The notes beneath the pieces are model-generated. The model was not told where the DNA came from. It did not search any database and saw only the letters and a program-made list of their open reading frames with translations. From assembly GCA_020852955.1 (NCBI GenBank), contig JADYZW010000047.1, positions 24,436 to 88,435 on the forward strand: a stretch of DNA of 64,000 bases. The letters are read 5' to 3'. The stretch is from Deltaproteobacteria bacterium (GTDB lineage: Bacteria; Desulfobacterota; Binatia; UTPRO1). This document shows, one piece after another, positions 24,002 through 54,238 of this stretch (position 1 is the first letter of the stretch; every line of letters begins with the position of its first letter). A program made the position numbers and the translations under genes.

Positions 24002-24037
24002 CCGCGCCCACCCGTTGCGAAACATGAGGAGAAGATC

Positions 24038-24577: not shown

Positions 24578-26053
24578 TCAGAAGCGGAAGATTGCCTGCA
24601 TCCTGGCGAGCAGGCGGCGCGCCCTGCCCTCGTTGCTTTCCGTCGCCACGCTCTGGCCGCGGCGCTCGCGGAGCTCGCTCTGCCGGGTCGCCAGAATGCG
24701 GCTCACCGCGGCCGCGACGCTCGGCCGGGTCTTGAAGAGGGCCTCGAACCCGGCCCGCGCGACGATCAGGAGCTCCGCGTCGCCCCTGGCGCGGACCGTC
24801 GCCGAGCGCGCCTCTCCCGTGAGGAGCGCCATCTCTCCGAAGAACGCCGGCGCGCGGAGATCGGCGACGTGGGTCTCGTGGCCAGCGGCGCCCCGCGCGA
24901 CGACCTCCACGGTTCCCCGCCGCAGCACGAAGAAGGCGTCACCGGCATCGCCCTCGCGACAGATGACCTCGTCCCGGCCGAACGCGGCCTCCCGGACGTC
25001 CGGCCGCAGCATGCCGAGCGCCGCGTCGTCGAGCTCCGCCAGGAAGTCGACCTGCCGGAGGGCCGCGAGGCGCTGCTCCTGGGCGCGCGCGTCCGGGTCC
25101 CGCTGCGGCGCCGCTTCGTGCAGGTAGACGTTCCGGATCGGGAACGGAATCTCCATGTCGTGGCGGCGAAGCGCGTACCAGAGCCTGCTCATGATCGCGT
25201 CGCGGACCGCGGGCTGACGCGTGTAGTCGCGGATCCAGAACCGGATCCGATACTTGATCGCAGAGTCGCCGTAGTCCACCACCTCCGCCGTCGCCGGCGG
25301 CGTCGCGACGACGTCGGGCACGCCGCGCAGCACCTCGACGATGACCTCCTTCACCTCGTTCGGCGGAATCGCGTACGCGACGCCGACGAAGAGCTCGTCG
25401 CCGATGGCCTCGCCCCGGAAGTTGCGTACGACCTCGCGCGCGAGGAACGCGTTCGGGACGTCGAGGATCTCGAGGTTGCGGGTGACGATCGACGTCGAGC
25501 GCCACCCGATGCCCTGCACCCGGCCGACGTTGCCACCGAAGCCGATCCAGTCGCCCGGCTCGAAGGGCTTCTGCATCTGCAGCGACAGGCCGCTGAAGAC
25601 GTTGCCGAGCGTCTCCTGGAGCGCGAGGCCGATCACCGCGGTCACGATCGCGGAGGTCGTGAGGAGGCCGGAGACGTCGACGTCCACCGAGTGCAGCACC
25701 GCGAGGATGACCACGGCGTAGACCAGGAGCGTCGCGAGGTCGCGGAAGATCGTCGAGAAGTGCGCCTGGCGGCGGCGCATGACGAGGTCGGCGGTCACGG
25801 CGATGCCGCGCACGACCGCGAACGACACGGCGGCGATCGCCAGCACGAACGCGACGTTGGCCGGCCGCGACGCCAGCCACGGCATGACGGCCTCGACGAC
25901 GGTCGCGGCGACGAGGCACCAGAGCGCGCCCCCGAACCGCCGGAAGGCCGGCTGATCCCGCCCGAGCCACCACCCCCCCACCAGGATCAGAGCTCCCGCG
26001 AGCCACAGGGCGGATGTCACGAGCGGTGAGCTGAGCGTCGCAGCGTCCATCAC
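24578..26053 (-). CDS. MscS-family mechanosensitive channel with C-terminal cyclic-nucleotide-binding domain
   Basis: N-terminal TM helices are followed by an MscS beta-domain (FEPGDWIGFGGNVGRVQGIGWRSTSIVTRNLEILDVPN). The C-terminal CNB domain reads FFVLRRGTVEV...FFGEMALLTGEARSATVRA. Confidence 0.85.
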   Translation of the reverse strand: MMDAATLSSPLVTSALWLAGALILVGGWWLGRDQPAFRRFGGALWCLVAATVVEAVMPWLASRPANVAFVLAIAAVSFAVVRGIAVTADLVMRRRQAHFSTIFRDLATLLVYAVVILAVLHSVDVDVSGLLTTSAIVTAVIGLALQETLGNVFSGLSLQMQKPFEPGDWIGFGGNVGRVQGIGWRSTSIVTRNLEILDVPNAFLAREVVRNFRGEAIGDELFVGVAYAIPPNEVKEVIVEVLRGVPDVVATPPATAEVVDYGDSAIKYRIRFWIRDYTRQPAVRDAIMSRLWYALRRHDMEIPFPIRNVYLHEAAPQRDPDARAQEQRLAALRQVDFLAELDDAALGMLRPDVREAAFGRDEVICREGDAGDAFFVLRRGTVEVVARGAAGHETHVADLRAPAFFGEMALLTGEARSATVRARGDAELLIVARAGFEALFKTRPSVAAAVSRILATRQSELRERRGQSVATESNEGRARRLLARMQAIFRF

Positions 26054-26137
26054 GCCTGTCGGGTCGACGGCGCGGCACTATGCAGAAGGCGCCGCGCGCC
26101 TGTCAAATCATCCGCCCGCGTGCTAGCCCTGCGGACC

Positions 26138-27019
26138 ATGGCGGACGCGCCGATCACCGTCATCTTCGCCGACATCAGCGGCAGCACCATGCTCTGCGCG
26201 GTGCGGGGCGACGAGACCGCCTACAAGCTGGTCTCGACCTGCCTGAGCACGCTCGAAGCCGAGGTCGAGCGCTTCAACGGCCGCGTGATCAAGCGGGTCG
26301 GCGACGCCATCCTCGCCATCTTCGACGCTGCCGAGCCGGCGGTGCACGCGGCGCACGCGATGCAGGTCGCGCTTGAGGCCCCCGGCAGCGAGGTCCACGC
26401 CGAGGGCGTCCGCGTCCGGGTCGGCATCGCGACCGGCACAGCCGTCCTCGACGCGGGCGACATCTACGGCGACGTCGTCAACGTCGCCGCCCGACTCACC
26501 TCGCTCGCCGGCGCGGACGAGGTGTTCATGGCCGGCGAGACCTACGAAGGGATCCCGGCGTCGATGAAGGACAACGTCCGCGTCATCGACCAGCTCGCGC
26601 TCCGCGGCCGTCCCGACTGGGTGCTCGTCTACCAGTACCTCTGGAAGCAGGAAGGCGCGACGGTCAGCACGACCGTCCGCCCGCGCGGCTACACGGCGGC
26701 GCTCGAGGTCGCCTACCGCGGCGAGAAGTACGCCCTCGGCCCGTCGCGTCCGAAGCTCACGGTCGGCCGCGATCCCGACAACGACATCAGCATCGACGAG
26801 ACGGTCGTTTCGCGCCATCACTGCGAGGTGGTGCTGCGCGGCGACAAGTTCCTGCTGGTCGATCGCAGCACGAACGGCACCTGGGTGCTGACCGACGGCG
26901 GCGACACGTTCCGCGTGACCCGCGAGGAGATCACCCTCGCCGGCAGCGGCCGAATCCTGCCGGGACGTCAGAATCTGGAACCCCTGCGCTATAGAGTCGG
27001 GCCGCAAACCCCGGCGTGA
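26138..27019 (+). CDS. Class III adenylate/guanylate cyclase fused to an FHA domain
   Basis: The cyclase core is ITVIFADISGST...RVIKRVGDAILAIFD...VRVGIATG. The C-terminal FHA is LTVGRDPDNDISIDETVVSRHHCEVVLRGDKFLLVDRSTNGTWV. The start could instead be GTG 26120. Confidence 0.85.
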   Translation: MADAPITVIFADISGSTMLCAVRGDETAYKLVSTCLSTLEAEVERFNGRVIKRVGDAILAIFDAAEPAVHAAHAMQVALEAPGSEVHAEGVRVRVGIATGTAVLDAGDIYGDVVNVAARLTSLAGADEVFMAGETYEGIPASMKDNVRVIDQLALRGRPDWVLVYQYLWKQEGATVSTTVRPRGYTAALEVAYRGEKYALGPSRPKLTVGRDPDNDISIDETVVSRHHCEVVLRGDKFLLVDRSTNGTWVLTDGGDTFRVTREEITLAGSGRILPGRQNLEPLRYRVGPQTPA

Positions 27020-27094
27020 TCCCGGCCGCGTCACGCCCGCTTCGCGAACCCGCGTTGCGCGAACGTGGGTCGATATGGGACAACGGTGGAGTTC

Positions 27095-27799
27095 ATGGTG
27101 GTCGTGGGTGACGTGCTGTCGGATCGCGGGCTCCGCCGCGAGCTGAACGAGGACGCGTACGCGTACGAGCCCGCGCTCGATCTCTTCCTGGTCGCGGACG
27201 GCATGGGCGGCCACGCCGCGGGCGAGATCGCGAGCCGCACGGCCGCCGAGACGATCACGACCAAGCTCCAGGAGCTCCTGGCCGACGACGATCTGACCCC
27301 GTTCCGCGACGCCGACGGCAAGCCCTGCGTCGGAGCCCGCCGGCTGGTGATCGCGGTCGAATGCGCCAACGACGCCATCTTCCGGACGGCCGCGAGCAAC
27401 CCGAGCCAGCGCGGCATGGGAACCACGGTCGCCGCCCTGCACTTCGCCGACGGGTTCGCGAACCTCTGCCACGTCGGCGACAGCCGCATCTACCGCATCC
27501 GCAACGGCGCCATCGAGCGCCTCACGGAGGACCACGCGATCGCGGCGAACGTCCTCTCCCGCGCGCTCGGCGCCGAGCCGATGGTCGAGGCGAGCTGGCG
27601 GGTCGAGCCGGTTCGTCCCGGCGAGTGCTTCGTCCTCTGCACCGACGGCGTCCATGGCCAGGTGAAGGACGAGGAGATGCTCGAGATCGTCGAGCGCAAC
27701 GGCGACGATTTCGGCGCCGCCTGCCGCGAGCTGATCGCCCTCGCCAACGACCGCGGCGGCCGCGACAACTCGACCGCCCTCGTCGTCGGCGTCCGCTGA
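27095..27799 (+). CDS. PP2C-family Ser/Thr protein phosphatase
   Basis: Motifs SDRGLRRELNEDAY, FLVADGMGGHAAGEIAS, LCTDGV and GGRDNSTALVV. The start could instead be GTG 27065. Confidence 0.88.
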   Translation: MVVVGDVLSDRGLRRELNEDAYAYEPALDLFLVADGMGGHAAGEIASRTAAETITTKLQELLADDDLTPFRDADGKPCVGARRLVIAVECANDAIFRTAASNPSQRGMGTTVAALHFADGFANLCHVGDSRIYRIRNGAIERLTEDHAIAANVLSRALGAEPMVEASWRVEPVRPGECFVLCTDGVHGQVKDEEMLEIVERNGDDFGAACRELIALANDRGGRDNSTALVVGVR

Positions 27800-27823
27800 C
27801 CGGCGCCGTCCGCCCCGAACGAG

Positions 27824-29155
27824 CTACCTCGTGGGCGCCCGAGCGCGCGGCGCCTCTCTGCCGAAGATCGCCTCGATGGTGATCTCCTTGCGCCGAGCAT
27901 CCCGCAGCACATGGTCCTTGCTGGTGTCGTGGTACAGGTGGCAGAGCATGCAGCTCGTGCCCGCCGACCGCGTCTCGCCGTCGATGTGGCAGCGCTGGCA
28001 GACGTCCTTCATCGGGAGGTTCACGTCGGCGGTCTCGGCGCTCTCGCGCACGTCGGGATGGCAGTGCTCGCACTTCAGGAGGTCGTGCGCCCGGTGCGAG
28101 AACTCGCCCCGTACGAGCCAGCGCGTCGGGATCATGGTCGGCTCGATCTCGGGGAGATCCCCCGGCGCGTGCGTGCCCTCCTCGTCGTGGCACAAGAAAC
28201 AGTACTTGTTGGCGTCGAGGAGCGACGAGGCGCCGTCGCCGAGGTTCGGGTCGAGTGGCTGATAGAGCTTGGCCTCGGCCTTGGCGAGTGCGCTCTTCGG
28301 GTTGGTCGGGTCGATAAAGGCGGCCAGCGAGACCGAGGCGTCGAGCGGGTCGCGGCGGACGCGGCCCGGGAGGCCCGGATCGGTCGAGCCGAAGATGCCG
28401 TCGGGGTTGTTCACGGCCGCGAAGAGAAGCTTCGCCTTCAGATCCTCGCGCACGACGTCGGGCGCCTCGTGCACCGCCTCGACCGACGAGTCCGGACCGA
28501 GCCCCGACTGCGCATGGCACTTCTTGCAATGCCGCTCGAAATCGATCGGCAGCATCAGCGCGCCGTCCTTCGCGGGCACGTGGCACTCGACGCACGAGAG
28601 CGTGTCGTCGGGATCGATCTTGGTGCTCGACAGATGGATCTCGTGATCGAAGCGGATCGCGGCTTCGTCGCGACGCCCGGCGCGGAGCGCCCCGAACTCC
28701 GGGTGGTCGGCGAAGGTCCGGACCGAACGCCGGATCTCGGGCTGCTCGCGCGTCGACGCAAGCTCGCCGTGGCACTCGACGCAGCTCGCGTTCGCGACGG
28801 CGAGGAACACGCCGGTGGCTCGATGCTCGACGTGACACGCCGCGCAGTCCGGCGTCTCCACCTCGGACTTCGCGTGCGTACGGTCGGTATGACAGCCGAG
28901 ACACGCCTCGGTCGGAACCCCGGCGTACGCGGCATGGCAGGTTTCGCAGCGGTCGCCGAAGCTCGCGTGCCCCTGCGACACGGGTCCCGGCAGGTACTGG
29001 CGCTGCTTCGTGCCGGCGTGGAGCCCCCACCACGCGAGGCCGCCGATCGCGACGAACAGCACCCCCACGAGCCAGTACCAGCGCCGGAAGAAGTCGGGAC
29101 GCGGGAAGAGGTCGAAGCGGAGGCGTTTCGCGAGGTCTTTGCTGTTCCGGACCAC
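27824..29155 (-). CDS. Membrane-anchored decahaem c-type cytochrome (class III/c3-like)
   Basis: One N-terminal TM helix (WYWLVGVLFVAIGGLAWWGL) followed by ten CxxCH motifs: CETCH, CLGCH, CAACH, CVECH, CVECH, CKKCH, CFLCH, CEHCH, CQRCH, CMLCH. Confidence 0.85.
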   Translation of the reverse strand: MVRNSKDLAKRLRFDLFPRPDFFRRWYWLVGVLFVAIGGLAWWGLHAGTKQRQYLPGPVSQGHASFGDRCETCHAAYAGVPTEACLGCHTDRTHAKSEVETPDCAACHVEHRATGVFLAVANASCVECHGELASTREQPEIRRSVRTFADHPEFGALRAGRRDEAAIRFDHEIHLSSTKIDPDDTLSCVECHVPAKDGALMLPIDFERHCKKCHAQSGLGPDSSVEAVHEAPDVVREDLKAKLLFAAVNNPDGIFGSTDPGLPGRVRRDPLDASVSLAAFIDPTNPKSALAKAEAKLYQPLDPNLGDGASSLLDANKYCFLCHDEEGTHAPGDLPEIEPTMIPTRWLVRGEFSHRAHDLLKCEHCHPDVRESAETADVNLPMKDVCQRCHIDGETRSAGTSCMLCHLYHDTSKDHVLRDARRKEITIEAIFGREAPRARAPTR

Positions 29156-29167
29156 CGGTACACCGAC

Positions 29168-30076
29168 TCAGTACTTGAGCGCCATGACGATGTGGAACGC
29201 CGCGAGCACGAAGAGCGCGAACGAGAGCGGCGCGTGGACGAAGAGCCAACCGTGCAGCACGTCGTGCAGGCGGCGCTGCACCGCGAGCTGGTGTGACTCC
29301 TCGCAGATGGCCGCGAGGCGCTCGAGCTTCGGGGCCCACTCCCCGGGCGCCCGCACGACGAGGGTGCGGATGTCGGGCGGGTTGGTGCGCGTGCGGGCGT
29401 CGCGCAGGAGGTACGGGCGGATCTCGCGTAGGTAAACGTCCCTGAGCAGCGCGGCCTCGGGCACGGGATCAGTCACCGGGGGCTTCCGCGCCACGGCCTT
29501 CCAGTTGCCCGGGCGCGTCTGCAGGGCGGCCTGCTCGGCGGCGAGCCGGGCCTGCTCCTCGGCGGCCTCGGGGACGACGCCGGCCAGGCTCGCGACGAGC
29601 TCGTACGCGTCGGTCGCGAGCCCCTCGCGCACGTGGTCCATCTGACCGACGAGCGTCTCGAGCGGCACGCGCTCGGTCATGATCCCCGGCAGGTACTGCT
29701 GCAGCGCCAGCCCGAAGAGGCCGCTCACCGTAACGACCGCGAACAGCGCCATGAGCGTCGTCGTGAGGGCGCCGCCGAGCCGGAGGCCGGCGTGGAAGAG
29801 GATCAGCGGCACGGCGAGGAGGCCGAGCCAGACGTGCATCTGCATCCAGACGCGCGCCGGCCCGATCCGCCACGTGCGAACCTTCTTCCGCCCCGCGAGG
29901 AGGCCGGCGAGCAGCATCGCGAGCGTCCCGAGGACGCCGTACGCGAGCCCGGGCCAGCTGCCTCCCGACGCACCGTACGGGCTCGCCGCTACGTAGAGGC
30001 GGTAGCTCACCGCGCCGGCGATCGTCGCGACGATCGTGAACGCGAGCCAGCCGCGGTGGTCCCTGTTGAGCCTCAT
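29168..30076 (-). CDS. Five-TM membrane protein with two H-x13-H pairs (putative dihaem b-type cytochrome)
   Basis: Start re-called at ATG 30076, overlapping the upstream stop (ATGA). TM3 reads HVWLGLLAVPLILFH and TM5 reads HAPLSFALFVLAAFH. A helical soluble insert of about 140 aa lies between TM4 and TM5. Confidence 0.7.
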   Translation of the reverse strand: MRLNRDHRGWLAFTIVATIAGAVSYRLYVAASPYGASGGSWPGLAYGVLGTLAMLLAGLLAGRKKVRTWRIGPARVWMQMHVWLGLLAVPLILFHAGLRLGGALTTTLMALFAVVTVSGLFGLALQQYLPGIMTERVPLETLVGQMDHVREGLATDAYELVASLAGVVPEAAEEQARLAAEQAALQTRPGNWKAVARKPPVTDPVPEAALLRDVYLREIRPYLLRDARTRTNPPDIRTLVVRAPGEWAPKLERLAAICEESHQLAVQRRLHDVLHGWLFVHAPLSFALFVLAAFHIVMALKY

Positions 30077-31941: not shown

Positions 31942-32036
31942 CCGCTCACCCTCGCTTCCCAGCCGGACCGAAAAGCCGGTCGCTCTTAGCAGGAAGGCGC
32001 GAGCCAGGGCAACGATTCCGTCGGGGCGGGGCGGCG

Positions 32037-33011
32037 CTACGCCTCCGCCAGCAAGCGCGCGACGTAGCGCCGCGCGCCTTCCTCGAGCGTCGTGAACGGC
32101 GTCGTCCACCCGGCGCCGCGCACGCGGTCCATCCTCGCTTCGGTCGCGTACTGGTAGCGCGCGCGCAGGCTCTCGGGCATCTCGATGAAGCGGATCCTCG
32201 GGGGAACGCCGAGCGCGGCAAACGTCGCGCGGGCGAGGTCGAGGAAGCTGCGGCTCGCGCCACTGCCGAGATTGAAGATGCCGCGCGCGAGCGGGCGCTC
32301 GAGCGCGAACCAGAGAACCGCGACGACGTCCTCGACATGGACGAAGTCGCGCCGCTGCTCGCCGTCGGCGACGTCCGGCCGATAGCTCTTGAAGAGCCGC
32401 ACCTCGCCGTCGGCGCGGATCTGGTCGTACGCGTGCAGGATGACGCTCGCCATCTTGCCCTTGTGGCGTTCGCCGAAGCCGTAGACGTTGAAGAACTTGA
32501 AGCCGCTCCAGGCCGGCGGCGTCCGACCGGCGCCCTCCTCGCCGAGCGCCCACAGATCGAACCGCTGCTTCGACTCGCCGTAGGGGTTGAGAGGACGGAG
32601 CTTCGGGATCGAGGCCTCGTCGTCGTCGTACCCGTTCGCTCCGTCGCCGTAGGTGGCGGCGCTGCTCGCGTAGACGAAGGGCACGCGGTGCGCGCTCGCC
32701 CAACGCCACAGCCGTTGCGAGTACTCGAGGTTGACCCGCCGGAGATGGTCGAGGTCCATCTCGGTCGTGTCGGTGCACGCGCCGAGGTGGACGATGCCGG
32801 CGAGCCCGGGCGCCTCCGCCGCGAGCCATCCGTCGAGCCCGTCGACGTCCACCCTGGCGCCGAAGTCGAGCCCCCGGTGCTCGGGGCGGTCCACGAAGCT
32901 CGCGAGGCGATCCACCGAAACGAGCGGCACGCCGCGCCGATTGCACGACTCGACGAAGCGCGCGCCGATGAAGCCGGCGGCGCCGGTGACGAGAAGCGCG
33001 CGCGCCGCCAT
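32037..33011 (-). CDS. hldD: ADP-L-glycero-D-manno-heptose 6-epimerase-like NAD-dependent epimerase
   Basis: It has a VTGAAGFIG Rossmann motif, the YASSAATYG catalytic region, and FKFFNVYGFGERHKGKMASVILH typical of HldD/RfaD. Confidence 0.72.
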   Translation of the reverse strand: MAARALLVTGAAGFIGARFVESCNRRGVPLVSVDRLASFVDRPEHRGLDFGARVDVDGLDGWLAAEAPGLAGIVHLGACTDTTEMDLDHLRRVNLEYSQRLWRWASAHRVPFVYASSAATYGDGANGYDDDEASIPKLRPLNPYGESKQRFDLWALGEEGAGRTPPAWSGFKFFNVYGFGERHKGKMASVILHAYDQIRADGEVRLFKSYRPDVADGEQRRDFVHVEDVVAVLWFALERPLARGIFNLGSGASRSFLDLARATFAALGVPPRIRFIEMPESLRARYQYATEARMDRVRGAGWTTPFTTLEEGARRYVARLLAEA

Positions 33012-33018
33012 GGCCGCC

Positions 33019-35421: not shown

Positions 35422-35501
35422 CGGGCGTTCGAACGATCCGCACCGCTACAGTGTCGCGCTCGCATCCAGGCAACCGGACGCGGAACTCCGGGCCCGAAAA
35501 C

Positions 35502-35540
35502 GCGAGGGGACCAACCCCGGTGCGGGATCGGCCCCCTCGC
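35502..35540. terminator. Bidirectional stem-loop between convergent genes
   Basis: An 8-bp stem, gcgagggg (35502-35509) paired with cccctcgc (35533-35540), with an inner cccg/cggg pairing. It lies in the 139-bp gap between the convergent cytochrome and Cys-rich genes. Confidence 0.45.
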
Positions 35541-35560
35541 CGCGCTGCAGCGTCAGCCGG

Positions 35561-42082: not shown

Positions 42083-42123
42083 CGTCCACCCTCCCATGCC
42101 GCGCCTGCCCCGCATGGGCTTCA

Positions 42124-44543: not shown

Positions 44544-44587
44544 CGCTCGTGCTCGCGCCTACCTCGCCGCGCCTCGGCGACGCGCCG

Positions 44588-46432: not shown

Positions 46433-46461
46433 GGCTCCGGACCCTCCAAGGATGCGCGCGC

Positions 46462-48882
46462 TCAGGCGGGTGGAATCGTCAACTTCACGGGACCTTTGAT
46501 CTTCGCGACGCACGCCAACCGATACTTCACGGGATTCCAGTCGAGCTGCCGCACCTTTTCGATGGTGGGCCGCTCCATGCCGCCCGGATCGGGCGGCACG
46601 AAGTGCTCGGCGCCCTCGATGATCTCGACCGTGCAGAGGCCGCACTGGCCGATCTTGCACTCCCAATCGAGCGGCTCTTCGTGATGATCGCGCGGCGCGC
46701 CGTCCTTGCCGACCTTGCAATCGGGAAAGCGCGTGACGAGCTCGTGGAAATACGCGTGCAGCAGGTCCTGGTCCGGCGCGACCGGGATCGTGAGCTTGTA
46801 CTTCTCGTAGTCGAGCGCGGCGACGAGCCCGCCCGCGGTGGCGGCGGCGAGCGCGGCCGGAGCGGGTGCGGCCGGAGCGGCCGCGGCAGGCGGCGCGGCG
46901 GCGTGCGGCGCGGCGACGACCACGTCGCTCGGCGCGAGCTTCGATACCGGCGCGAACCGTTCGAAGCGGAACCGCTTGCTCGCGACCCGGAACTCGTCGC
47001 CGTTCGCGAGCCGGGTCGGCGCCGTCAGCTTCACGTACGTGCCGTTCTTGCTCCCGAGATCGAAGATGCCGAGCGCGCCGCCCTCGATCCGCAACTGCGC
47101 GTGGCGCCGGGACAAGCTCAGATCCGCCTTGTCGAGGGACACCGCCTCGACCCGGCCGACGATCATCCCCTTGCCTGGGATCGGATAGGTTTCCCGCTGC
47201 ACGCCCTCGGCGTCGAAGTGGGTGACGGCCCAGCCGTTCCCCTGCTCCACGACCATGAGGATCTGCGCGCCGATCCAGACGAGGTCGTTCGCGACGAGCG
47301 GCCGCCCCTCCTGCCCTTTGGCGCGGAGCCACACGCCGGCCCCGCCGCTCTCGTCCTCGAGCGCGTAGCCGTCGTCCTGGCGGGTCAGGAGCGCGTGCGT
47401 GTCGGCCATGTAGACGTCGTCGGCGCAGGCGATGTCGGGCGTCTTCCTGCCGATCGTGACCTGATCCTTCGTGAGCGGGAACGCCTCTTCCGGCGAGTCG
47501 TCGGGATGGAGGCTCACCAGCTGCGCCGCGCTCGCCGGACGCTTGGCGGCCTCGGCGTGCGACGGCGCCGGCGGCACGACGACCGGCGGCGGCGGAGCGC
47601 TCGGCGCCACGGACGGCGCGCTCGAGGGCGCGGCGGCCGCCGGCTTCGGCGGCGCGGGCGCCGGCGTCGGCGTCGGCGCCACCTCGGACTTCGGCACCTC
47701 CATGCCGGCGCGCAGCGCGATCGCCTCGACCGCCTTCACCGCATCGACCATGGCGGCCTTGATGTTGCGCTTCTCGACGACCTGCTCGTACGAGCCCGCG
47801 TCGTCGAAATCCTTGCAGCGCAGATATTTCGGCCCGCGCGCGTCGCCCACCAGGAACACGCCCGGCAACGACACCTCGCCGTCGTGGTTCACCAGCATCT
47901 GCGGTCGGTTGTTGAGGAGCGGGATCTTGATGCCGCAGCCTTGCAGCAGCTTCACCGGCAGGTCCTCGCCGATGCAGGCCACCACCTGATCCTTGGCGAA
48001 CTCGAGGTGGACGGTCTCACAGGGCCTGCCCGCCGAGATCTTGCGGTCGATCCGCACCGACAGGTACTCGAGCTTGTCGTCGGCGGTGACCACCGCGACG
48101 GGCTCCGAGAACGCGAGATAGCGGACGTTGCCGTTCCCGACGTAGGCGGAGAAGAACACCTCGGAGAGCGCCCGCGACACCTTCGGCATGCCGCCGCCGC
48201 GATACGACCAGTAGATCGCGCTCTGATCCTCGCCCGCGATCTTCGCGCCCGAGATCGCGATCACCGCCTCCGCCGCCGACGTGCCGCCGCCGATCACGAG
48301 CGCGGGCCTCCCGACGTAGTCCTTCGCGTCGTCGAGGCGGAACGCGATGCCGTCGGTGTTGCCGGGGATGTCGAACCGGCGCGGCACGCCCGCGCCGATC
48401 GCGAGGAGGACATTGCGCGCTTGGTAGCGCTCTTCCTCGCCGGTGCGATGGTTCCAGGTCCGGACGCTCCACACGCCCTCGGGCAGCCGGTCGAGCCCCG
48501 TGAACTCGTGGCCGATCTTCGCGGTCAGGCCGTACTCCTTGTACTTGGCCTTCCAGACCTTCACGAGATCGTCCTTGTCGATGTCGTCGAACGCGAGGGC
48601 CGCGAGCATCGGCCCGCCGGCCGGGAACTGGAGCTTGTCGCCGCCGCCGTAGCTCGGAAGGATCTGCTTCTCCTTCGGGTAGTCGCGGATGCGCTTCATC
48701 AGGTCGTCGTAGTCGACGACCAGGCAGGAGAGTCCGAGCTCCTTGCAGCGCACCGCCGCCGCGGTGCCGGCGGGACCGCCGCCCGCGACGAAGACGTCGA
48801 CGACGTCCGGCACGGCAGCCGGCTGGTCGACCTTCAGCGTCCCTCGGCGGGTATAGTCCGCCTCGTCTATCTTGTCGGACAT
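46462..48882 (-). CDS. FAD/NAD(P)-binding oxidoreductase fused to two FHA domains and a plant-type [2Fe-2S] ferredoxin domain
   Basis: Start re-called at ATG 48882 (MSDKIDEADY). FAD fold VDVFVAGGGPAGTAAA, second nucleotide fold PALVIGGGTSAAEA, then GVFLVGDA. After a Pro/Ala linker come FHA1 (VTIGRKTPDIACADDVYMADTHALLTRQDDGYALEDES) and FHA2 (MIVGRVEAVSLDKADLSLSRRHAQLRIEGGALGIFDLGSKNGTYV). The C-terminal CKIGQCGLC...LAC matches the C-x4-C-x2-C...C ferredoxin pattern. No signal peptide. Confidence 0.8.
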   Translation of the reverse strand: MSDKIDEADYTRRGTLKVDQPAAVPDVVDVFVAGGGPAGTAAAVRCKELGLSCLVVDYDDLMKRIRDYPKEKQILPSYGGGDKLQFPAGGPMLAALAFDDIDKDDLVKVWKAKYKEYGLTAKIGHEFTGLDRLPEGVWSVRTWNHRTGEEERYQARNVLLAIGAGVPRRFDIPGNTDGIAFRLDDAKDYVGRPALVIGGGTSAAEAVIAISGAKIAGEDQSAIYWSYRGGGMPKVSRALSEVFFSAYVGNGNVRYLAFSEPVAVVTADDKLEYLSVRIDRKISAGRPCETVHLEFAKDQVVACIGEDLPVKLLQGCGIKIPLLNNRPQMLVNHDGEVSLPGVFLVGDARGPKYLRCKDFDDAGSYEQVVEKRNIKAAMVDAVKAVEAIALRAGMEVPKSEVAPTPTPAPAPPKPAAAAPSSAPSVAPSAPPPPVVVPPAPSHAEAAKRPASAAQLVSLHPDDSPEEAFPLTKDQVTIGRKTPDIACADDVYMADTHALLTRQDDGYALEDESGGAGVWLRAKGQEGRPLVANDLVWIGAQILMVVEQGNGWAVTHFDAEGVQRETYPIPGKGMIVGRVEAVSLDKADLSLSRRHAQLRIEGGALGIFDLGSKNGTYVKLTAPTRLANGDEFRVASKRFRFERFAPVSKLAPSDVVVAAPHAAAPPAAAAPAAPAPAALAAATAGGLVAALDYEKYKLTIPVAPDQDLLHAYFHELVTRFPDCKVGKDGAPRDHHEEPLDWECKIGQCGLCTVEIIEGAEHFVPPDPGGMERPTIEKVRQLDWNPVKYRLACVAKIKGPVKLTIPPA

Positions 48883-48962
48883 CGACCCCGATCCCTTCTC
48901 GGGAACACCACGCCGCCCCACCGTAGAAGCCGCGCCTTCCTACTGATTCGGCGTCGAAGTTG

Positions 48963-50504
48963 TCAAGGATTCGCGGCCGGACGCGAGCGGAAGTAGTCGA
49001 CGATCGCGGCCGCGAAGGCGGGCACCGTGTAGTCCTTCGGCTCGACATCGACCGCGAGGCCGAGATCGCGCGCCGTCGCCGCGGTCACCGGACCGATACA
49101 TCCGACGGCGACGCCCGCGAGCACCGCGCCCAGGTCGCGGCCCGGAAAGAGCCCCGCGAAGTGCGTGACCGTACTCGAGCTCGTGAAGGTGACGAGGTCG
49201 GGACGCGGCGAGCCGGCGAAGAGCGCGGGCGCGGCCGCGGCCTCCGGCGGCAGCACCGTCCGGTAGGTCGCGACGTCGTCGACGAGCGCGCCCGCCGCCC
49301 GCAGGCGCTCCGGCAGGACCCGGCGCGCGCCGGCGGCGCGGGCAAGGAGCACCCGCTTCCCGGCGACGCCGCGCGCGACGAGGCCGTCGGCGACCGCCTC
49401 GGCGCGGTACTCCCCGGGCGTGAGCGCCGCCGCGAGCCCGCGCGCTCCGATGGCAGCCGCCGTCGCCGGCCCGATCGCCGCGATCGCGACGCCGGCGAGC
49501 TCGCGGACGTCGCGCCCGAGCGCGCGCAGGCGGTCGAAGAACACCTCGACGCCGTGCGGGCTCGTGAGCACGAGCCAGGCATAGCGGCCGAGGTCGGCGA
49601 GCGCGGCGTCCCACGCGGCGAACGACGCGGGAGGCTCGGGCGCGATCGTCGGCAGCGACACCACCTCGGCGCCCTCGCCCTCGAGGAGTGCGGCGAACGC
49701 CTCGGCCCGTCCGCGCGGCCGCGTCACGACGACGCGACGGCCGAAGAGCGGGCGGCGCTCGAACCAGCCGAGCTCCGCGGCCAATCCGACGACTCCCCCG
49801 ATCACGACGAGCGCCGGCGGCCGCAGTCCGGCGGCCGCGACGAGCGCCGGCAGTGTCGCAACGGTGCCGCGCACCACGCGCTGGCGCGCGGTCGTGCCCC
49901 AGCGGATCGCCGCGGCGGGCGTCGCGGGGTCGAGCCCGCCGGCGGTCAGGCGGTCGAGGTTGCCAGAGAGTTGCAGCACGCTCATGTAGAGCACGAGCGT
50001 GCCGCCCTGCCGCGCGAGCGCCTCCCACGGCACGGCACGGTCGCCCTCGCGGTCCGCCTCGTGACCGGTCACGAAGCTCACGACCGACGCGTGATCGCGG
50101 TGGGTGAGCGGGATCCCCGCGTAGGCCGGCGCCGCGACGGCCGCCGTGACGCCCGGCACCACCTCGAACGGAACGCCGGCCCGCACGCACGCGCGCGCCT
50201 CCGCGCCGCCACGACCGAACACGAAGGGATCGCCGCCCTTGAGGCGCACGACCGAGCGTCCGGCGCGCGCGTATCCGAGCATCGTCTCGGTGATCTGCGC
50301 TTGCGTGAGGCGCACGCCGGAGCCGTGCTTGCCGGTGAAGATCACCTCGCAGTCGGGTCGGGTGAACGCGAGCAGACTCGGGTTCGAGAGGGCGTCGTAG
50401 ATCACGACGTCGGCGCTCTCGAGACGGCGCTTGCCGTGGAGCGTGAGGAGCCCCGGGTCGCCCGGCCCGGCGCCGACCAGGCTGACGCGGCCGCCGGCGC
50501 TCAC
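48963..50504 (-). CDS. cobA/hemD: Bifunctional uroporphyrinogen-III C-methyltransferase / uroporphyrinogen-III synthase
   Basis: N-terminal SUMT (VSLVGAGPGDPGLLTLHGKRRLESADVVIYDAL, VRLKGGDPFVFGRGGAE) with a C-terminal HemD-like half. Confidence 0.88.
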   Translation of the reverse strand: MSAGGRVSLVGAGPGDPGLLTLHGKRRLESADVVIYDALSNPSLLAFTRPDCEVIFTGKHGSGVRLTQAQITETMLGYARAGRSVVRLKGGDPFVFGRGGAEARACVRAGVPFEVVPGVTAAVAAPAYAGIPLTHRDHASVVSFVTGHEADREGDRAVPWEALARQGGTLVLYMSVLQLSGNLDRLTAGGLDPATPAAAIRWGTTARQRVVRGTVATLPALVAAAGLRPPALVVIGGVVGLAAELGWFERRPLFGRRVVVTRPRGRAEAFAALLEGEGAEVVSLPTIAPEPPASFAAWDAALADLGRYAWLVLTSPHGVEVFFDRLRALGRDVRELAGVAIAAIGPATAAAIGARGLAAALTPGEYRAEAVADGLVARGVAGKRVLLARAAGARRVLPERLRAAGALVDDVATYRTVLPPEAAAAPALFAGSPRPDLVTFTSSSTVTHFAGLFPGRDLGAVLAGVAVGCIGPVTAATARDLGLAVDVEPKDYTVPAFAAAIVDYFRSRPAANP

Positions 50505-51427
50505 GAACGGCTCGTGCCGGCGCGCGCGACCAACGCCGCCGCGCCGCGCGTGAGGAGGGCCTCGGCGAGCCGCGTTCCGATGTCGGCGGCGGCGTCGCGC
50601 GGCCCGTCGAAGGCGTCGCCGAGGATCTCGCGACCGTCGACCGACGCCACGATCGCCCGCATGCGGAGCTGGTCGCGGTGGACGGTCGCGTACGCCGCGA
50701 GCGGCGTGTGGCAGTCGCCGCCGATCGCGGCGAGAAAAGCGCGCTCGGCCACCGCCGCGGCGCGGGTCGGAGGATCGTCGAGCGCCGCGACGACCCGGCG
50801 CGTCGCCGCGTCGTCCTCCCGCACCTCGAGCGCGAGGATGCCCTGACCGATCGCGGGCAGGAAGCGCGCCGCCGGGATCGCCACGAGGCCGGCGGGCGCG
50901 AGACCGAGGCGCTCGAGCCCCGCCGCGGCGAGCAGGATGGCGTCGACCTCGCAGGCCCCGAGCTTGCGCAGGCGCGTATCGACGTTACCGCGCATGTCGA
51001 CGACGCCGAGATCGGGCCGCAGCGCCGCGAGCTGGGCGCGTCGGCGGAGGCTCGACGTGCCGACCCGCATGCCGGCCGGCAGGCGTCCGAGCCCGACGCC
51101 GACCGGCGAGATCACCACGTCGCGCGGGTCGGCGCGCGGCGGCGTGGCGGCGATCTCGAGCCCCGCGGGCAGTACCGCCGGCACGTCCTTCAACGAGTGC
51201 ACCGCGAGGTCGATGCGACCGCGCGCCAATGCCTCCTCGATCTCCTTCACGAACAGACCCTTGCCCCCGAGAGCGGCGAGGCTTCCGGTCGCGACGTCGC
51301 CGCTCGTGCGGATCGTGATGAGCTCGACGGGCGTGCCGCGGCGCTCGATCTCCGCCGCGACCATGCCGGACTGACGGAGCGCGAGCGCGCTGCCGCGGGT
51401 GCCGAGGCGAAGCGGCTCGACGCTCAT
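50501..51427 (-). CDS. hemC: Hydroxymethylbilane synthase (porphobilinogen deaminase)
   Basis: Motifs LRLGTRGSALALRQ, HSLKDVP and RGNVDTRLRKL. It has 4-nt overlaps on both sides. Confidence 0.92.
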   Translation of the reverse strand: MSVEPLRLGTRGSALALRQSGMVAAEIERRGTPVELITIRTSGDVATGSLAALGGKGLFVKEIEEALARGRIDLAVHSLKDVPAVLPAGLEIAATPPRADPRDVVISPVGVGLGRLPAGMRVGTSSLRRRAQLAALRPDLGVVDMRGNVDTRLRKLGACEVDAILLAAAGLERLGLAPAGLVAIPAARFLPAIGQGILALEVREDDAATRRVVAALDDPPTRAAAVAERAFLAAIGGDCHTPLAAYATVHRDQLRMRAIVASVDGREILGDAFDGPRDAAADIGTRLAEALLTRGAAALVARAGTSRS

Positions 51428-52734
51428 TTCTCCTCCTCGGGATCGTCCGTCAGGCGCGCCGCCGGGATCTCCAGGTCGAAGAGGCGCCGGACACTGGCGG
51501 CGAGATCGGGATCGTCGGGCGCCCCTTCGCGCTTCAGCGAGGCGAGCGGCGTGTGCAGGATCTTGTTCACGATCGACGACGTCAGCGCGTCGAGCAGCGC
51601 GCGGTGGCGCGGCGCCGCGTCCTGGAGCGCCGTCAGCGCCTTTTCGAGCTCGGCCCGGCGGATGGTCTCGAGCTTCTCCCGCAGCGCCACGATCGTCGGC
51701 ACGACGTCGAGGCCCGCGAGCCAGCGCACGAACCGCTCGACCTCGTCCTCGACGATGGCCTCGGCGCGCAGCGCCTCGCGCTCGCGCTCGCCGGTGTGGT
51801 CGGCGCTCGTCCGGGCGAGATCGTCCATGTCGTAGACGTAGACGTTGTCGAGGTCGTTGATCGCCGGATCGAAGTTGCGGGGCACGGCGAGGTCGATGAA
51901 GAACATCGGCCGCTGCTTGCGGGCGCGCAGGACCTCCTGGACGAGCTGCGGACCGACGAGGTGGTCGGCGGCGCCGGCGGAGCCGATCACGATGTCGGCG
52001 TGCTTCAGGTACTCGGCGAGGCGCTCGAACGGAATCGCCAGGCCGCCGAACGCGTGGGCGAGCGCGGCCGCGTGGTCGAAGGTGCGGGTCGTCACCATGA
52101 TGTCGCCGGTGCCGCGCGCCTGGAGATGGCGCGCGACGAGCTGGCTCATCTTGCCGGCGCCGACCAGCATCACCGTCTTGTCCTCCAGCGTCTCGAAGAT
52201 GGTGCGGGTGAGGTCGGCGGCAACCGACGCGACCGACACGGACTTGCTGGCGATGCCCGTCTCGGTGCGGACGCGCTTCGCCACCGTGAAGGCCCGGTGA
52301 AACGCCTTGTGCAGCACCGGCCCCGACGTCCCGGCCGCCGCGGCCGCCACGTACTGATCCTTCATCTGACCGAGGATCTGCGGCTCGCCGACGACCATCG
52401 AATCCAGGCTCGCCGCGACCCGGAAGAGGTGGCGGATCGCGTCCCGGCCGTGGTGGACGTAGAGGTGGGGCGCGAACGCCGAGCGCTCCACTTCGCGCAC
52501 GCGCGTGAGGTACGCCTCCACCTGGGCGGCCACCATCGCGGCCGGCACCGACGTGCCGGTCACCACCTCCACGCGGTTGCAGGTGGAAACGATCGCCGCC
52601 TCCTGCACGCCCGGCACCGCTTTGAGCTCGCCGAGCGCCGTCGCGATCCCATCCGCCGGGAACGCCAGACGCTCGCGCAGCGCGACCGGCGCGGTGCGAT
52701 GGTTCACGCCGACGATACAGAGGTCGCGCGCCAC
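51424..52734 (-). CDS. hemA: Glutamyl-tRNA reductase
   Basis: Start re-called at GTG 52734 (VARDLCIVGVNHRTAPVALRERLAF). It has the catalytic STCNRVE motif and the NADPH fold VMLVGAGKMSQL. Confidence 0.9.
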   Translation of the reverse strand: MARDLCIVGVNHRTAPVALRERLAFPADGIATALGELKAVPGVQEAAIVSTCNRVEVVTGTSVPAAMVAAQVEAYLTRVREVERSAFAPHLYVHHGRDAIRHLFRVAASLDSMVVGEPQILGQMKDQYVAAAAAGTSGPVLHKAFHRAFTVAKRVRTETGIASKSVSVASVAADLTRTIFETLEDKTVMLVGAGKMSQLVARHLQARGTGDIMVTTRTFDHAAALAHAFGGLAIPFERLAEYLKHADIVIGSAGAADHLVGPQLVQEVLRARKQRPMFFIDLAVPRNFDPAINDLDNVYVYDMDDLARTSADHTGEREREALRAEAIVEDEVERFVRWLAGLDVVPTIVALREKLETIRRAELEKALTALQDAAPRHRALLDALTSSIVNKILHTPLASLKREGAPDDPDLAASVRRLFDLEIPAARLTDDPEEEK

Positions 52735-52736
52735 GG

Positions 52737-53558
52737 TCAGTCGAAGCTCCCTCCGTGCTTGCCGGGGAAGATCATCTGTCCGAAGACGAACGACGCGAAG
52801 AGCAGCGTGAAGCCGACGATGGTGACGGTCGCGGCGCGCCGGCCGCGCCACCCGGCCACCATGCGCGCCTCGAGCAGCCCCGCGTAGACGCCCCAGGTGA
52901 CGAGCGAGAATATCTCTCGCTCGTCCCACGACCAGAACCGTCCCCAGGTGTGCTTCGCGAAGAGCGCGCCGGTCACGATGCCGAGCGTGAGGAGCGGAAA
53001 GCCCCAGGCGAGGGCGCGATAGTTGAGCGTATCGAGCGCCTCGAGCGACGGCAGCCGGCTGGAGAGCCCACCGATGCGCTTCTCCTTCAACTGCCGTTCG
53101 CGAAAGAGGTAGACGAGGCTCACGCAGAATGCGAGCGCGAGGATCGCGTTGCCGAGAAAGGCCGCGGTCACGTGCACGGGCAGCCACGCGCTCCGGAGGT
53201 TCGGGGGTAGCTCGCGCACCCCGGCGTAGAACGCGAAGGACGCGAGCGTCACCGTGAAGGCGAGCGGCGCGACGACCGCCCCGACGGCGGGCAGGTGATA
53301 GCGCGCTTGCACCCCGAGATAGACGCCGACGGTGAGCCAGGCGAAGAACGACAGCGCCTCGTATTCCGTCGTGAAGGCGGGATAGCCCGCCGCGACCGAC
53401 CGCAGGAAGATGCTCGCGCCGTGCGCCGCGAAGGCCGCCGCGAGGCCGAGGGTGCCGAGGCGGCGCGCGGCCGGCATGAGGCTCAGGAGGTGCAGGCTCA
53501 GGCCGACCGCGGCGGCCAGATAGGCGACGAGCGCGATCTTCAGCAGCAGGAGGTCCAT
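52737..53558 (-). CDS. Cytochrome c assembly protein, CcsA/HemX-like
   Basis: Start re-called at ATG 53558 (MDLLLLKIALVAYL). It is polytopic and carries the Trp-rich haem-handling motif WGRFWSWDEREI. Confidence 0.8.
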   Translation of the reverse strand: MDLLLLKIALVAYLAAAVGLSLHLLSLMPAARRLGTLGLAAAFAAHGASIFLRSVAAGYPAFTTEYEALSFFAWLTVGVYLGVQARYHLPAVGAVVAPLAFTVTLASFAFYAGVRELPPNLRSAWLPVHVTAAFLGNAILALAFCVSLVYLFRERQLKEKRIGGLSSRLPSLEALDTLNYRALAWGFPLLTLGIVTGALFAKHTWGRFWSWDEREIFSLVTWGVYAGLLEARMVAGWRGRRAATVTIVGFTLLFASFVFGQMIFPGKHGGSFD

Positions 53559-53563
53559 GGCGA

Positions 53564-54238
53564 TCAGCGATCCTCTCCGACCGCGAGGTCGATGCCGAGC
53601 TCGGCGAGCGTCGTGCGCGTCCCGGCGTGCTCGCGCAAGAGCGCATCGACGCGCGCCGCGTCGCGGGCGCGGAGCGCGTCGAGGAGCGGCGCGTCGGCGA
53701 GCGCCGCGAAGATCCGGCCGCGCGTCGACGCGTCGCCGGCGCCGAGCCGGGTCCGGAGCGCGCCGAGAATGCGCGCCGCCGTGCCCCACTCCACGCCGAG
53801 CGTGGCGTCGAGGTCGCGCGCGAGGCGCTTCGCGAGTGCCGGGCTCGCCCCGCCGGTCGAGACCGCGACCTGCACGGGGCCGCGGCGCACCACCGCGGGA
53901 ACGATGAAACCACACCGGCGCGGCTGGTCGACGACGTTGAGGAAGACGCGCGCCTCCTCGGCCTCGACCGCGATGGCCGCGAGCTGGGACTCGTCGCCTG
54001 CGGCGGCGCAGGCGAGCCACGCGCCGTCCAGGTCGCCCCGCCGGTACGCCCGCGCGTGGTGGACGATCTCGTGCGTATCGGCGAGCCCCCGGAGCTCCTC
54101 GGCGAGCGTCGGGCTCACCACGGTCACGCGCGCCCCGGCCTCGAGAAGCGCCGCGACCTTGCGCGCGGCGATCTCTCCGCCCCCGATCACGATGCACGGA
54201 CGCCCACGCAGGTCGAGATACGCCGGGTAATACTGCAC
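53564..54238 (-). CDS. sirC: Precorrin-2 dehydrogenase / sirohydrochlorin ferrochelatase (siroheme synthase N-terminal type)
   Basis: MQYYPAYLDLRGRPCIVIGGGEIAARKVAALLEAGARVTVVSP is typical of the CysG-N/SirC/Met8 family. Confidence 0.85.
   Translation of the reverse strand: MQYYPAYLDLRGRPCIVIGGGEIAARKVAALLEAGARVTVVSPTLAEELRGLADTHEIVHHARAYRRGDLDGAWLACAAAGDESQLAAIAVEAEEARVFLNVVDQPRRCGFIVPAVVRRGPVQVAVSTGGASPALAKRLARDLDATLGVEWGTAARILGALRTRLGAGDASTRGRIFAALADAPLLDALRARDAARVDALLREHAGTRTTLAELGIDLAVGEDR

Follow-up and report, generated by a model that had tools for sequence, protein, structure and literature searches.

Two cytochrome loci of a Binatia bacterium that probably encode one NAD(P)H-fed electron-export system

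Background

Among described systems, the closest to the one reported here is ptdABCDEFG, a putative and uncharacterised porin-cytochrome complex of marine Alphaproteobacteria, Gammaproteobacteria, Nitrospirales and others (Elbon et al., bioRxiv 10.1101/2023.11.21.568154). Its genes encode a pentahaem cytochrome, a porin, a flavin adenine dinucleotide (FAD) oxidoreductase, a tetrahaem cytochrome, a protein with cyclic nucleotide monophosphate (cNMP)-binding and [4Fe-4S] domains, a ferric-reductase-like membrane protein and a decahaem cytochrome (bioRxiv 10.1101/2023.11.21.568154). Here we describe a partly related system in a stretch of 64,000 nucleotides (hereafter the window) from a bacterium of the Binatia (GenBank assembly GCA_020852955.1, contig JADYZW010000047.1). 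A first-pass annotation had suggested that two cytochrome loci in the window and a haem operon next to them may encode a single path for electrons from NAD(P)H to the exterior. Comparison with homologous loci leads us to favour, with moderate confidence, the view that the loci at 27824-31944 and 34096-48882 form one conserved electron-transfer system, which would be split and rearranged in this Binatia genus. The two loci probably take electrons from NAD(P)H and export them through the inner membrane to a decahaem protein with a beta-propeller that lies beside an outer-membrane barrel. Judged from the proteins encoded, the most likely function is that of a regulated, quinone-independent, NAD(P)H-fed electron-export chain.

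Genes of the two loci

The G+C content of the window is 71%, and genes were therefore called from the frame pattern of G+C at the codon positions (GC3/GC1/GC2) together with translation. The proteins were annotated with Pfam and NCBIfam profiles. The genes that make up the two loci, named here by letter, are as follows.

27824-29155, minus strand: A, core decahaem cytochrome c anchored in the inner membrane (10 CXXCH motifs; one N-terminal transmembrane (TM) segment, residues 29-47)
29168-30076, minus strand: B, core membrane protein, candidate transmembrane dihaem b, ferric-reductase-like (at least five TM segments; two H-x13-H pairs)
30073-31944, minus strand: C, core cytoplasmic protein (two cNMP-binding-like domains, one FHA domain, four [4Fe-4S] clusters; Pfam)
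34096-35421, plus strand: D, core periplasmic c554-like cytochrome (four CXXCH motifs and one CX4CH motif; Pfam)
38156-42082, minus strand: F, core secreted decahaem cytochrome with an LVIVD beta-propeller (10 CXXCH motifs; Sec signal peptide)
42124-43842, minus strand: G, core outer-membrane beta-barrel of the outer module, predicted to be AlgE-like with 18 strands (AlphaFold2; predicted local distance difference test score (pLDDT) 81.9, predicted template modelling score (pTM) 0.81)
43842-44543, minus strand: H, accessory tail-anchored FHA protein (Pfam; C-terminal TM segment, residues 214-232)
44588-46432, minus strand: I, core lipoprotein of the outer module (two GlcG/HbpS-like domains; LAAC lipobox)
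46462-48882, minus strand: J, cytoplasmic NAD(P)H-type flavoprotein, the input module in its split form (Pyr_redox_2/3, FHA, FHA and a C-terminal [2Fe-2S] Fer2 domain; Pfam)

The components listed in the first-pass annotation are all present in our gene calls and Pfam/NCBIfam matches, each within a few codons, at most, of where it had been placed. The first locus (27824-31944, minus strand) consists of C, B and A, and the coding regions of C and B overlap by 4 nucleotides. The second is transcribed from the minus strand in the order sirC-like, CcsA/HemX-like, hemA, hemC, cobA-hemD, J, I, H, G, F, E, where E encodes a Cys-rich protein that is considered below with the haem genes. H and G share a 1-nucleotide stop/start overlap, and a Shine-Dalgarno-like GGGAGGG precedes the ATG of F at 42082. 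A scan of 35400-55000 for promoters and terminators yielded fewer hits than shuffled sequence.

The source genome (4.43 Mb in 67 contigs) contains no paralogues of A, B, C, D, F, G, H, I or J. The nearest homologues of F are labelled Candidatus Binatia or 'Deltaproteobacteria bacterium'; the taxon labels of relatives are throughout those of the public records. About 10 open reading frames (ORFs) of the genome have at least three CXXCH motifs, three of them inside the window, and six genes encode haem-copper oxidases of the COX1 family. The genome is of the aerobe type and is not that of a cytochrome-rich metal reducer.

Conservation of the loci as one system

In Nitrospirota, Thermoanaerobaculia and Proteobacteria the genes of the system are found in one operon. 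The single operons of a Nitrospirota locus (L002) and a Thermoanaerobaculia locus (L003) encode a protein that joins a Pyr_redox FAD domain to two cNMP-binding domains and Fer4 domains, followed by B, a fusion of A to an FHA domain and a TM segment, I, G, F and D. They also carry a CHASE2 cyclase. The B homologue in these operons has 277 amino acids, and the G homologue has approximately 580-700 and matches no family. BLAST aligns the FAD part of J with the corresponding domain of the FAD-cNMP-Fer4 fusions in L002 and L003 (E values of 2e-9 and 3e-15), and A with the FHA-TM-decahaem fusion of L002 (8e-58). The other proteins align with their counterparts in the two operons at E values of 1e-30 (C), 2e-19 (B), 2e-108 (I), 3e-180 (G) and 2e-34 (D), and F is 57-62% identical to its counterparts. 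Elsewhere, then, proteins from both loci of the window occur side by side or joined into one chain.

A scan of species-representative genomes for F produced at least 599 confirmed loci, out of 600 matching stretches listed. The best 80 represent Binatia, Acidobacteriota, Nitrospira, Methylomirabilia, Bdellovibrionota, Myxococcales, Chitinophagales and Alpha-, Beta- and Gammaproteobacteria, and include two cultured isolates. Neighbours were counted at the 59 F loci with enough flanking sequence, which come from at least eight phyla. G is adjacent to F in every one (59/59), and I is present in 54, A and C in 53 each, B in 49 and D in 44. When all neighbours were clustered against one another, the only families that recurred in more than 11 loci were the seven that we take as the core of the system: A, B, C, D, F, G and I.

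Within the Binatia the two loci also co-occur, the check on co-occurrence across genomes that had been proposed with the first-pass annotation. Of 81 Binatia genomes, 14 carry F and 11 carry A; every genome with A also has F, and A is absent from all 67 genomes that lack F (Fisher p = 3e-11). Three genomes have F without A, two of which are incomplete and two of which have a broken F gene. In one Binatia genome (G022) the groups I-G-F, D and C-B-A are contiguous with nothing between them, and a second (G058) has the layout of the window. In eight genomes no A lies within 10 kb of F; seven of these carry A elsewhere, at a distance of about 14 kb in the two that can be judged (G487, G488). The single operon and partial fusions in other phyla, together with the strict co-occurrence in Binatia, uphold the earlier proposal that the two cytochrome loci are one system.

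Catalytic enzymes of nitrogen-oxide or sulfur metabolism encoded beside homologous clusters had been named as a finding that would tie the clusters to another process. No catalytic enzyme of the nitrogen or sulfur cycle is consistently adjacent according to the clustering of conserved neighbours. Nor is there a quinol dehydrogenase (CymA, ImcH, CbcL) among the conserved neighbours, and the proteins of the window have no NapC/NirT-type matches. In seven alphaproteobacterial loci (L039, L042, L049, L053, L059, L074, L076) a secreted protein of approximately 170 amino acids without a Pfam match is retained between A and I.

The cytoplasmic input module

Residues 41-363 of J match Pyr_redox_2/3 and contain two dinucleotide-binding motifs. 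The clusters of C correspond to four C-x2-C-x(2-7)-C-x3-C(P) motifs. No TM segment or signal peptide is predicted in either protein. Both are cytoplasmic candidates for the entry of electrons and, as had been noticed at first reading, both carry FHA domains, two in J and one in C by Pfam.

The input module occurs in three forms. Most lineages have a fused form in which the FAD domain is joined to the cNMP-FeS protein. The split form, with J (FAD-FHA-FHA-Fer2) and C (cNMP-FHA-FeS) as separate proteins, is found in the Binatia, in L008 and in a Chitinophagales genome (L015); full-length homologues of J are present in L001, L008 and L015. In the Terriglobia, the cNMP-FeS gene (C) lacks an FAD domain and is directly preceded by a gene encoding fused NuoE/NuoF-like domains (2Fe-2S_thioredx, Complex1_51K, NADH_4Fe-4S).

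L025, 18316-20042: NuoE/NuoF-like gene upstream of the cNMP-FeS gene in Terriglobia; also in L019, L023, L040, L043, L075 and L083

This gene appears to be an alternative module through which NADH feeds the same system. That two unrelated modules able to oxidise NAD(P)H occupy one position speaks for NAD(P)H as the donor.

One close Binatia relative has an insertion directly upstream of C, seen once only, that encodes a molybdopterin oxidoreductase of 731 amino acids (L001, 21229-23424; Molybdop_Fe4S4, Molybdopterin, Molydop_binding) and also holds a SnoaL-like gene. The oxidoreductase could be an extra electron input.

Inner-membrane proteins

The membrane protein B has a weak match to DUF4405 in Pfam. 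Its histidines H81/H95 and H281/H295, with 13 residues between the members of each pair, are 98-100% conserved in 51 homologues. These four residues are a candidate signature of a transmembrane dihaem b. Of 59 homologues of A, 54 likewise have ten CXXCH motifs. In Thermoanaerobaculia and Nitrospirota the N-terminus of A, on the cytoplasmic side, bears a fused FHA domain, which is the counterpart of the separate H of the window, and FHA-FHA-TM genes are found in L015, L055 and L072.

Periplasmic relay and outer module

D directly follows F in the canonical operons. Its pattern of four CXXCH motifs and one CX4CH motif is kept in 48 of 52 homologues and, given this conserved CX4CH, D probably binds five haems. 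The lipoprotein I matches PF03928 in two stretches with 64.3 bits (cut-off 25), and many of its homologues have a Gly-rich linker after the lipobox.

The outer-membrane barrel of the first-pass annotation is recovered as a barrel by AlphaFold and Foldseek, and is refined by them to a small one of AlgE type. The best Foldseek match of the G model is AlgE (E value 5.5e-17), followed by the Campylobacter MOMP and by OccD/OccK channels. The top 17 matches are all AlgE, and MtrB is absent from the top 50. A C-terminal aromatic (F/Y) beta-signal is present in G and its listed homologues. Ahead of the barrel, residues 59-95 (approximately) are strongly conserved (DRWR ... W.DPYNQN.LKGD.P), are modelled at low confidence and have no counterpart in AlgE. 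This segment could act as a plug in the periplasm or as a site where F docks.

F is the best-conserved protein of the system, with 50-62% identity across phyla compared with 31-51% for G. Its homologues form more than 7,800 clusters, in which members from other phyla still share 58-62% of residues with it. It matches LVIVD (PF08309) with 82-84 bits (cut-off 20.2), and its propeller is modelled confidently (pLDDT mostly 80-95). Foldseek searches with the model recovered generic seven-bladed propellers only, and nothing for the haem domain. Searches of Protein Data Bank sequences gave weak matches only, at the haem motifs, to octahaem nitrite reductase. The first-pass annotation had described F and E as surface or secreted proteins; the export signals bear out secretion, and for a surface position these same signals are the only support.

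A proposed path for electrons

The comparison shows which genes are present, which cofactor motifs they encode and how well these are conserved, the folds of the barrel and the propeller, and the unity of the loci; the donor, carrier order, direction of flow, regulation and acceptor are inferred as follows. The flavoprotein J would oxidise cytoplasmic NAD(P)H and pass electrons through its [2Fe-2S] domain to the four [4Fe-4S] clusters of C. They would then cross the inner membrane through two bis-His b-haems of B, by the logic of NADPH oxidases (NOX) and ferric reductases, in which a quinone is not needed. On the periplasmic side the membrane-anchored decahaem A may take them up, and the pentahaem D may pass them to the outer module of I, G and F, where F would reduce an acceptor at the outer membrane. 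The cNMP domains of C and phospho-threonine signalling through FHA domains and PP2C probably gate the flow, and the split subunits may also be brought back together with the help of the FHA domains. This order from NAD(P)H to FAD, FeS clusters, dihaem b and c-haems, without a quinol dehydrogenase, fits the conserved parts as it had been envisaged at first reading, and the NuoEF-like module of Terriglobia reinforces it. The carriers are all of low-potential types, and flow inward to NAD(P)+ would be strongly uphill.

A path that bypasses the quinone and pumps nothing looks like a gated reductase or redox valve and not like a respiratory chain. Such a valve would accord with regulatory domains built into the proteins and with carriers that are predominantly aerobes. 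A bolder version, which we regard as an outside chance, is that of a very widespread, signal-gated, NOX-like export of electrons from NAD(P)H in bacteria that are mostly aerobes, which would not be respiration, in which the outer module would be a new outer-membrane redox complex and docking through FHA domains and phospho-threonine would replace subunit fusion. The purpose could then be the reduction of an environmental oxidant, the reductive acquisition of iron, manganese or humics, or the deliberate production of extracellular superoxide.

Several observations weigh against the proposed chain. The match of B to the ferric reductase family (PF01794 Ferric_reduct) scores 16.1 bits, below the cut-off of 28. 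The cNMP domains of C in the window do not have the canonical FGE...R[ST]A phosphate-binding motif, which is present in 36 of 51 C homologues and absent from 15, and cNMP control of this copy is thus uncertain; control through FHA domains and phospho-threonine may have partly taken over in the window copy. Quinone-free export from NAD(P)H would dissipate energy, which makes routine respiration unlikely. At the outer membrane, G is predicted to be an 18-strand, AlgE-like barrel that is probably not wide enough to hold a cytochrome, and hence it may be that electrons do not pass this membrane through protein at all. F has no lipobox (a lipobox-like string in 4 of 74 homologues is apparently spurious), and its haem domain, modelled with no more than moderate confidence (mean pLDDT 69), matched no solved structure. 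The median identity among homologues is 53% for F and 41% for G, compared with 27% for A and B, and such conservation is more like that of an enzyme and its substrate channel than that of a generic wire. Finally, many carriers are aerobes, e.g. Methylobacter, Limnobacter and Fontimonas, which counts against delivery to the exterior and against the reduction of minerals considered below.

Alternative explanations

The alternative that survives best, though still a tentative one, is that F is a periplasmic terminal reductase. Its propeller would bind a soluble, probably anionic, substrate that enters through G, the inner module would supply the electrons, and nothing would leave the cell. In favour of a reaction in the periplasm, on a solute let in by G, are the small barrel with its AlgE/OccD fold, the unanchored F, which is not a lipoprotein, and the fact that F and G are much better conserved than A and B. 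The family of F points the same way: its more than 7,800 clusters at 90% identity reduce to roughly 20 full-length relatives among the best 150 representatives of 50%-identity clusters. In addition, ptd-type loci pair the same inner module with another terminal cytochrome and porin, as would be expected of interchangeable reductases, and F is weakly similar to octahaem nitrite reductase, ExtM and NrfB. However, F has at least 11 invariant histidines outside its haem motifs, enough for bis-His ligation of all ten haems, which may leave no open catalytic site. F also has neither a CXXCK motif nor another catalytic motif, and the gene context yields no candidate substrate.

We consider it doubtful that the system performs classical extracellular electron transfer, as the first-pass annotation had it, with F exposed at the surface or wired through G and reducing insoluble Fe(III) or Mn(IV), humics or electrodes. 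The layout is like that of a porin-cytochrome complex, in which the barrel gene is tightly linked to the decahaem gene, and a surface-exposed wire to minerals would be an alternative or an addition at the last step of the export chain. The classes and phyla of the carriers include some with known metal reducers, e.g. Thermoanaerobaculia. However, the 18 strands of G are fewer than in any demonstrated cytochrome sheath; the MtrB barrel has 26. The Pfam description of LVIVD as a cell-surface repeat supports a surface position, and the reduction of iron has been proposed for the related ptd operon (Elbon et al., bioRxiv 10.1101/2023.11.21.568154). Against this, F is not a lipoprotein, the genome has only about 10 multihaem ORFs and has six genes for haem-copper oxidases, and a path that bypasses the quinone conserves no energy.

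A NOX-like oxidase, switched by cNMP or phospho-threonine, would reduce O2 at the envelope, or an extracellular oxidant, to form superoxide or H2O2 or to serve redox signalling or defence. The sequence of NAD(P)H, flavin and transmembrane dihaem b is shared with NOX, regulatory domains lie within the input subunit with cyclases nearby, and the carriers are predominantly aerobic. The HbpS-like lipoprotein I also belongs to the system, and the HbpS family contains an extracellular haem-binding sensor of oxidative stress. Nonetheless, the 25 c-type haems, the propeller and the barrel would not be needed for the production of reactive oxygen species, and we judge this role improbable.

Inward uptake would start with the oxidation of Fe(II), Mn(II) or a different external donor at F, from where electrons would pass inward and reduce NAD(P)+. 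It has a precedent in porin-cytochrome systems, which can run either way (e.g. PioAB, MtoAB). Yet the reduction of NAD(P)+ from such donors is strongly uphill, the electrons would move against the membrane potential, and the cluster has no energy-coupling component, all of which makes this direction highly improbable.

Although the genes from sirC to F form one tight co-directional array in the genus, with a gap of 41 nucleotides between cobA-hemD and J, we give almost no credence to two functionally independent neighbouring loci, which fusion, synteny and co-occurrence contradict, or to a haem operon dedicated to the pathway, the genes of which are single-copy and not adjacent outside the genus.

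Signalling genes

Three genes for signalling proteins lie beside the first locus, either convergent with it or divergent from it.

24578-26053, minus strand: MscS-like channel with a cNMP-binding domain, possible accessory (Pfam)
26120-27019, plus strand: class III nucleotidyl cyclase-FHA protein, candidate regulator (Pfam)
27065-27799, plus strand: PP2C phosphatase, candidate regulator (Pfam)

The channel carries the canonical FGE..RSA motif and is also found near the system in the Binatia genome G022. In 11 loci, drawn from five lineages, the system has a CHASE2 cyclase beside it, PP2C adjoins it in six to eight, and genes for PP2C and FHA-FHA-TM proteins recur in Gammaproteobacteria and Bacteroidota. 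The link to cNMP and phospho-threonine that had been proposed from the window is thus strengthened by accessories that recur beside the system: CHASE2 cyclases, PP2C and FHA-TM proteins.

Approximately 15-20 kb upstream of the start of the window (C47, 3472-9749), a second PP2C, 38% identical to that of the window, lies beside a Ser/Thr-kinase-like ORF, one of two such ORFs found in the genome by motif search. This ORF is a candidate for the kinase acting on the five FHA domains of the window.

Neighbouring genes outside the system

The other genes within and around the two loci are the following.

48963-54238, minus strand: housekeeping tetrapyrrole operon with sirC-like, CcsA/HemX-like, hemA, hemC and cobA-hemD genes (Pfam)
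53564-54238, minus strand: sirC-like gene
52737-53558, minus strand: CcsA/HemX-like gene (Cytochrom_C_asm)
48963-50504, minus strand: cobA-hemD
35561-37915, minus strand: E, secreted protein of 784 amino acids with 62 Cys and a hydrophobic N-terminal leader (no Pfam or NCBIfam match)
32037-33999: deoxyhypusine-synthase-like and NAD-dependent epimerase genes, which separate the two loci

The haem operon, which the first-pass annotation had included in the path as its haem supply, turns out to be a single-copy housekeeping operon. The genome has no second copy of hemA, hemC or cobA-hemD, and haem genes adjoin J only in the genus of the window (G058, L001); there are none beside the system in G022, G015, G016 or other phyla. 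We therefore reject a dedicated supply.

The Cys-rich E had likewise been counted as a component. Relatives with 27-52% identity, in at least three or four copies, are found elsewhere in the genome.

C37, 24936-27365: paralogue of E
C45, 39897-42485: paralogue of E
C23, 28388-31069: paralogue of E
C45, 47203-48984: paralogue of E

E adjoins the system only in the genus of the window (L001, G058). As a member of a multi-copy family and a neighbour at the level of the genus only, it was rejected as a core part. The deoxyhypusine-synthase-like and epimerase genes are conserved (76-95% identity) in the same genus only, and by this distribution the pair is a genus-specific insertion outside the system.

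Just upstream of the signalling genes (22442-24391) are genes for a fusion of a Rieske [2Fe-2S] domain to an FAD pyridine-nucleotide-disulfide oxidoreductase (519 amino acids) and for a protein of the carboxymuconolactone-decarboxylase family. Neither was seen beside the system in the other genomes examined.

Significance

If the export chain proposed here is correct, a large share of soil, freshwater and marine bacteria would be able to send electrons from NAD(P)H to the outer membrane by a regulated path that does not depend on quinone. The inner-membrane decahaem A is present in approximately 6% of sampled alphaproteobacterial species and F in 17% of sampled Binatia, and carriers also include Nitrospira, methanotrophs and Acidobacteriota. 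The system would then be a new class of envelope redox machine and would bear on the unexplained extracellular reduction of metals and humics, and production of reactive oxygen, by aerobes. The split, FHA-decorated version suggests how phospho-threonine signalling can regulate or assemble such complexes. Cultured carriers exist in Limnobacter alexandrii LZ-4 (locus L032) and Fontimonas sp. SYSU GA230001 (locus L026).

Comparison with known systems

Like the system described here, MtrCAB, PioAB/MtoAB and the Geobacter Pcc/Ext systems link a barrel gene tightly to that of a decahaem cytochrome, use periplasmic multihaem relays and follow a trans-envelope logic. However, the sheath barrel of Mtr/Pcc has 20-26 strands, whereas G has 18 and is AlgE-like, and the outer-surface cytochrome of Mtr/Pcc is a lipoprotein, whereas F has a Sec signal and no lipobox. 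The input is CymA, ImcH or CbcL, a quinol dehydrogenase, in place of the NAD(P)H flavo-FeS module of the window. Sequence similarity of Mtr/Pcc to proteins of the window is confined to haem motifs.

NOX, STEAP and MsrQ-Fre share with B two bis-His pairs on two TM helices, a feed from a cytoplasmic NAD(P)H flavoprotein and a crossing of the membrane that is free of quinone. The flavoprotein of NOX and ferric reductases is FNR-like, in contrast to the Pyr_redox type of J. In the window, unlike in the superfamily of NOX and ferric reductases, a ferredoxin with four clusters lies in between and the acceptor is a decahaem cytochrome.

The Tmc, Hmc and Nhc complexes of sulfate reducers and Cbc of Geobacter also combine cytoplasmic FeS proteins with a membrane cytochrome b and a periplasmic multihaem c. 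Their subunits belong to other protein families, with no subunit of the CCG/HdrD or NrfD type in the window, and link to the quinone pool or DsrC. NCBIfam matches of window proteins to TmcA, QrcA and HmcB are far below the cut-offs.

Multihaem cytochromes with a beta-propeller and an outer-membrane barrel, as found here, are also encoded by DFE_0448-0451/0461-0465 of Desulfovibrio ferrophilus and by the EET1 porin-NHL-cytochrome clusters of Acidobacteriota (PMC5815863; bioRxiv 10.64898/2026.05.27.727921). In both cases the propeller is a separate protein of NHL type, whereas the LVIVD propeller of the window is fused to the decahaem part, and the EET1 porin is MtrB-like while the barrel of the window is AlgE-like. 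The NHL proteins of D. ferrophilus and Acidobacteriota EET1, as well as a Tenderiales LVIVD protein, a Verrucomicrobia cluster of a porin and an octahaem cytochrome, and FoxY, were judged to be other systems.

AlgE is the best structural match of G, with 18 strands and a TM-score, normalised to the target, of 0.65-0.70. The two are 12-13% identical in sequence, and there are no alginate genes near G. A search of the literature, in which ptd was the one related cluster described, found no description of an outer module that consists of a GlcG lipoprotein, an AlgE-like 18-strand barrel and a decahaem-propeller protein.

The closest relatives are the ptd-type loci, two of which were recognised among alphaproteobacterial genomes by their match to the published description and not by accession. 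Of 401 alphaproteobacterial species genomes searched with an A homologue, 25 were carriers, most of them of the window type (B-A-I-G-F). The two ptd-type loci share a cassette of the FAD-cNMP-FeS protein, B, A and D.

L111 (G453, contig C19, 33000-52900): ptd-type locus
L114 (G213, contig C7, 98000-117900): ptd-type locus

A further locus, L113 (G337), has the cassette with D and no outer module within 10 kb.

The counterparts of PtdD (tetrahaem by CXXCH count) and PtdG (decahaem) in L111 and L114 have four and ten CXXCH motifs and are 30-32% identical to D and 26-29% identical to A, respectively. B is 25-26% identical to the counterparts of the ferric-reductase-like PtdF, C aligns with those of PtdE (cNMP-binding, 4Fe-4S clusters), and J aligns with the FAD domain of the FAD/NAD(P) oxidoreductase. 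The FAD and FeS parts are separate in the window, with FHA and Fer2 additions, unlike in ptd.

The outer modules differ. In L111 and L114 this module consists of a pentahaem protein of approximately 600 amino acids and a porin of approximately 535, with no GlcG lipoprotein, whereas that of the window consists of I, G and F. PtdA is a pentahaem cytochrome whose C-terminal part is a beta-sandwich and PtdB is its porin, and the window has no such pair. An identification of F with PtdA or of G with PtdB was rejected, as neither has significant BLAST or profile similarity to the pentahaem protein or porin of L111 and L114. The inner cassette is common to ptd-type and window-type loci, which suggests that an inner-membrane export cassette is shared and is combined with alternative outer modules, of which that of the window type is the commoner.

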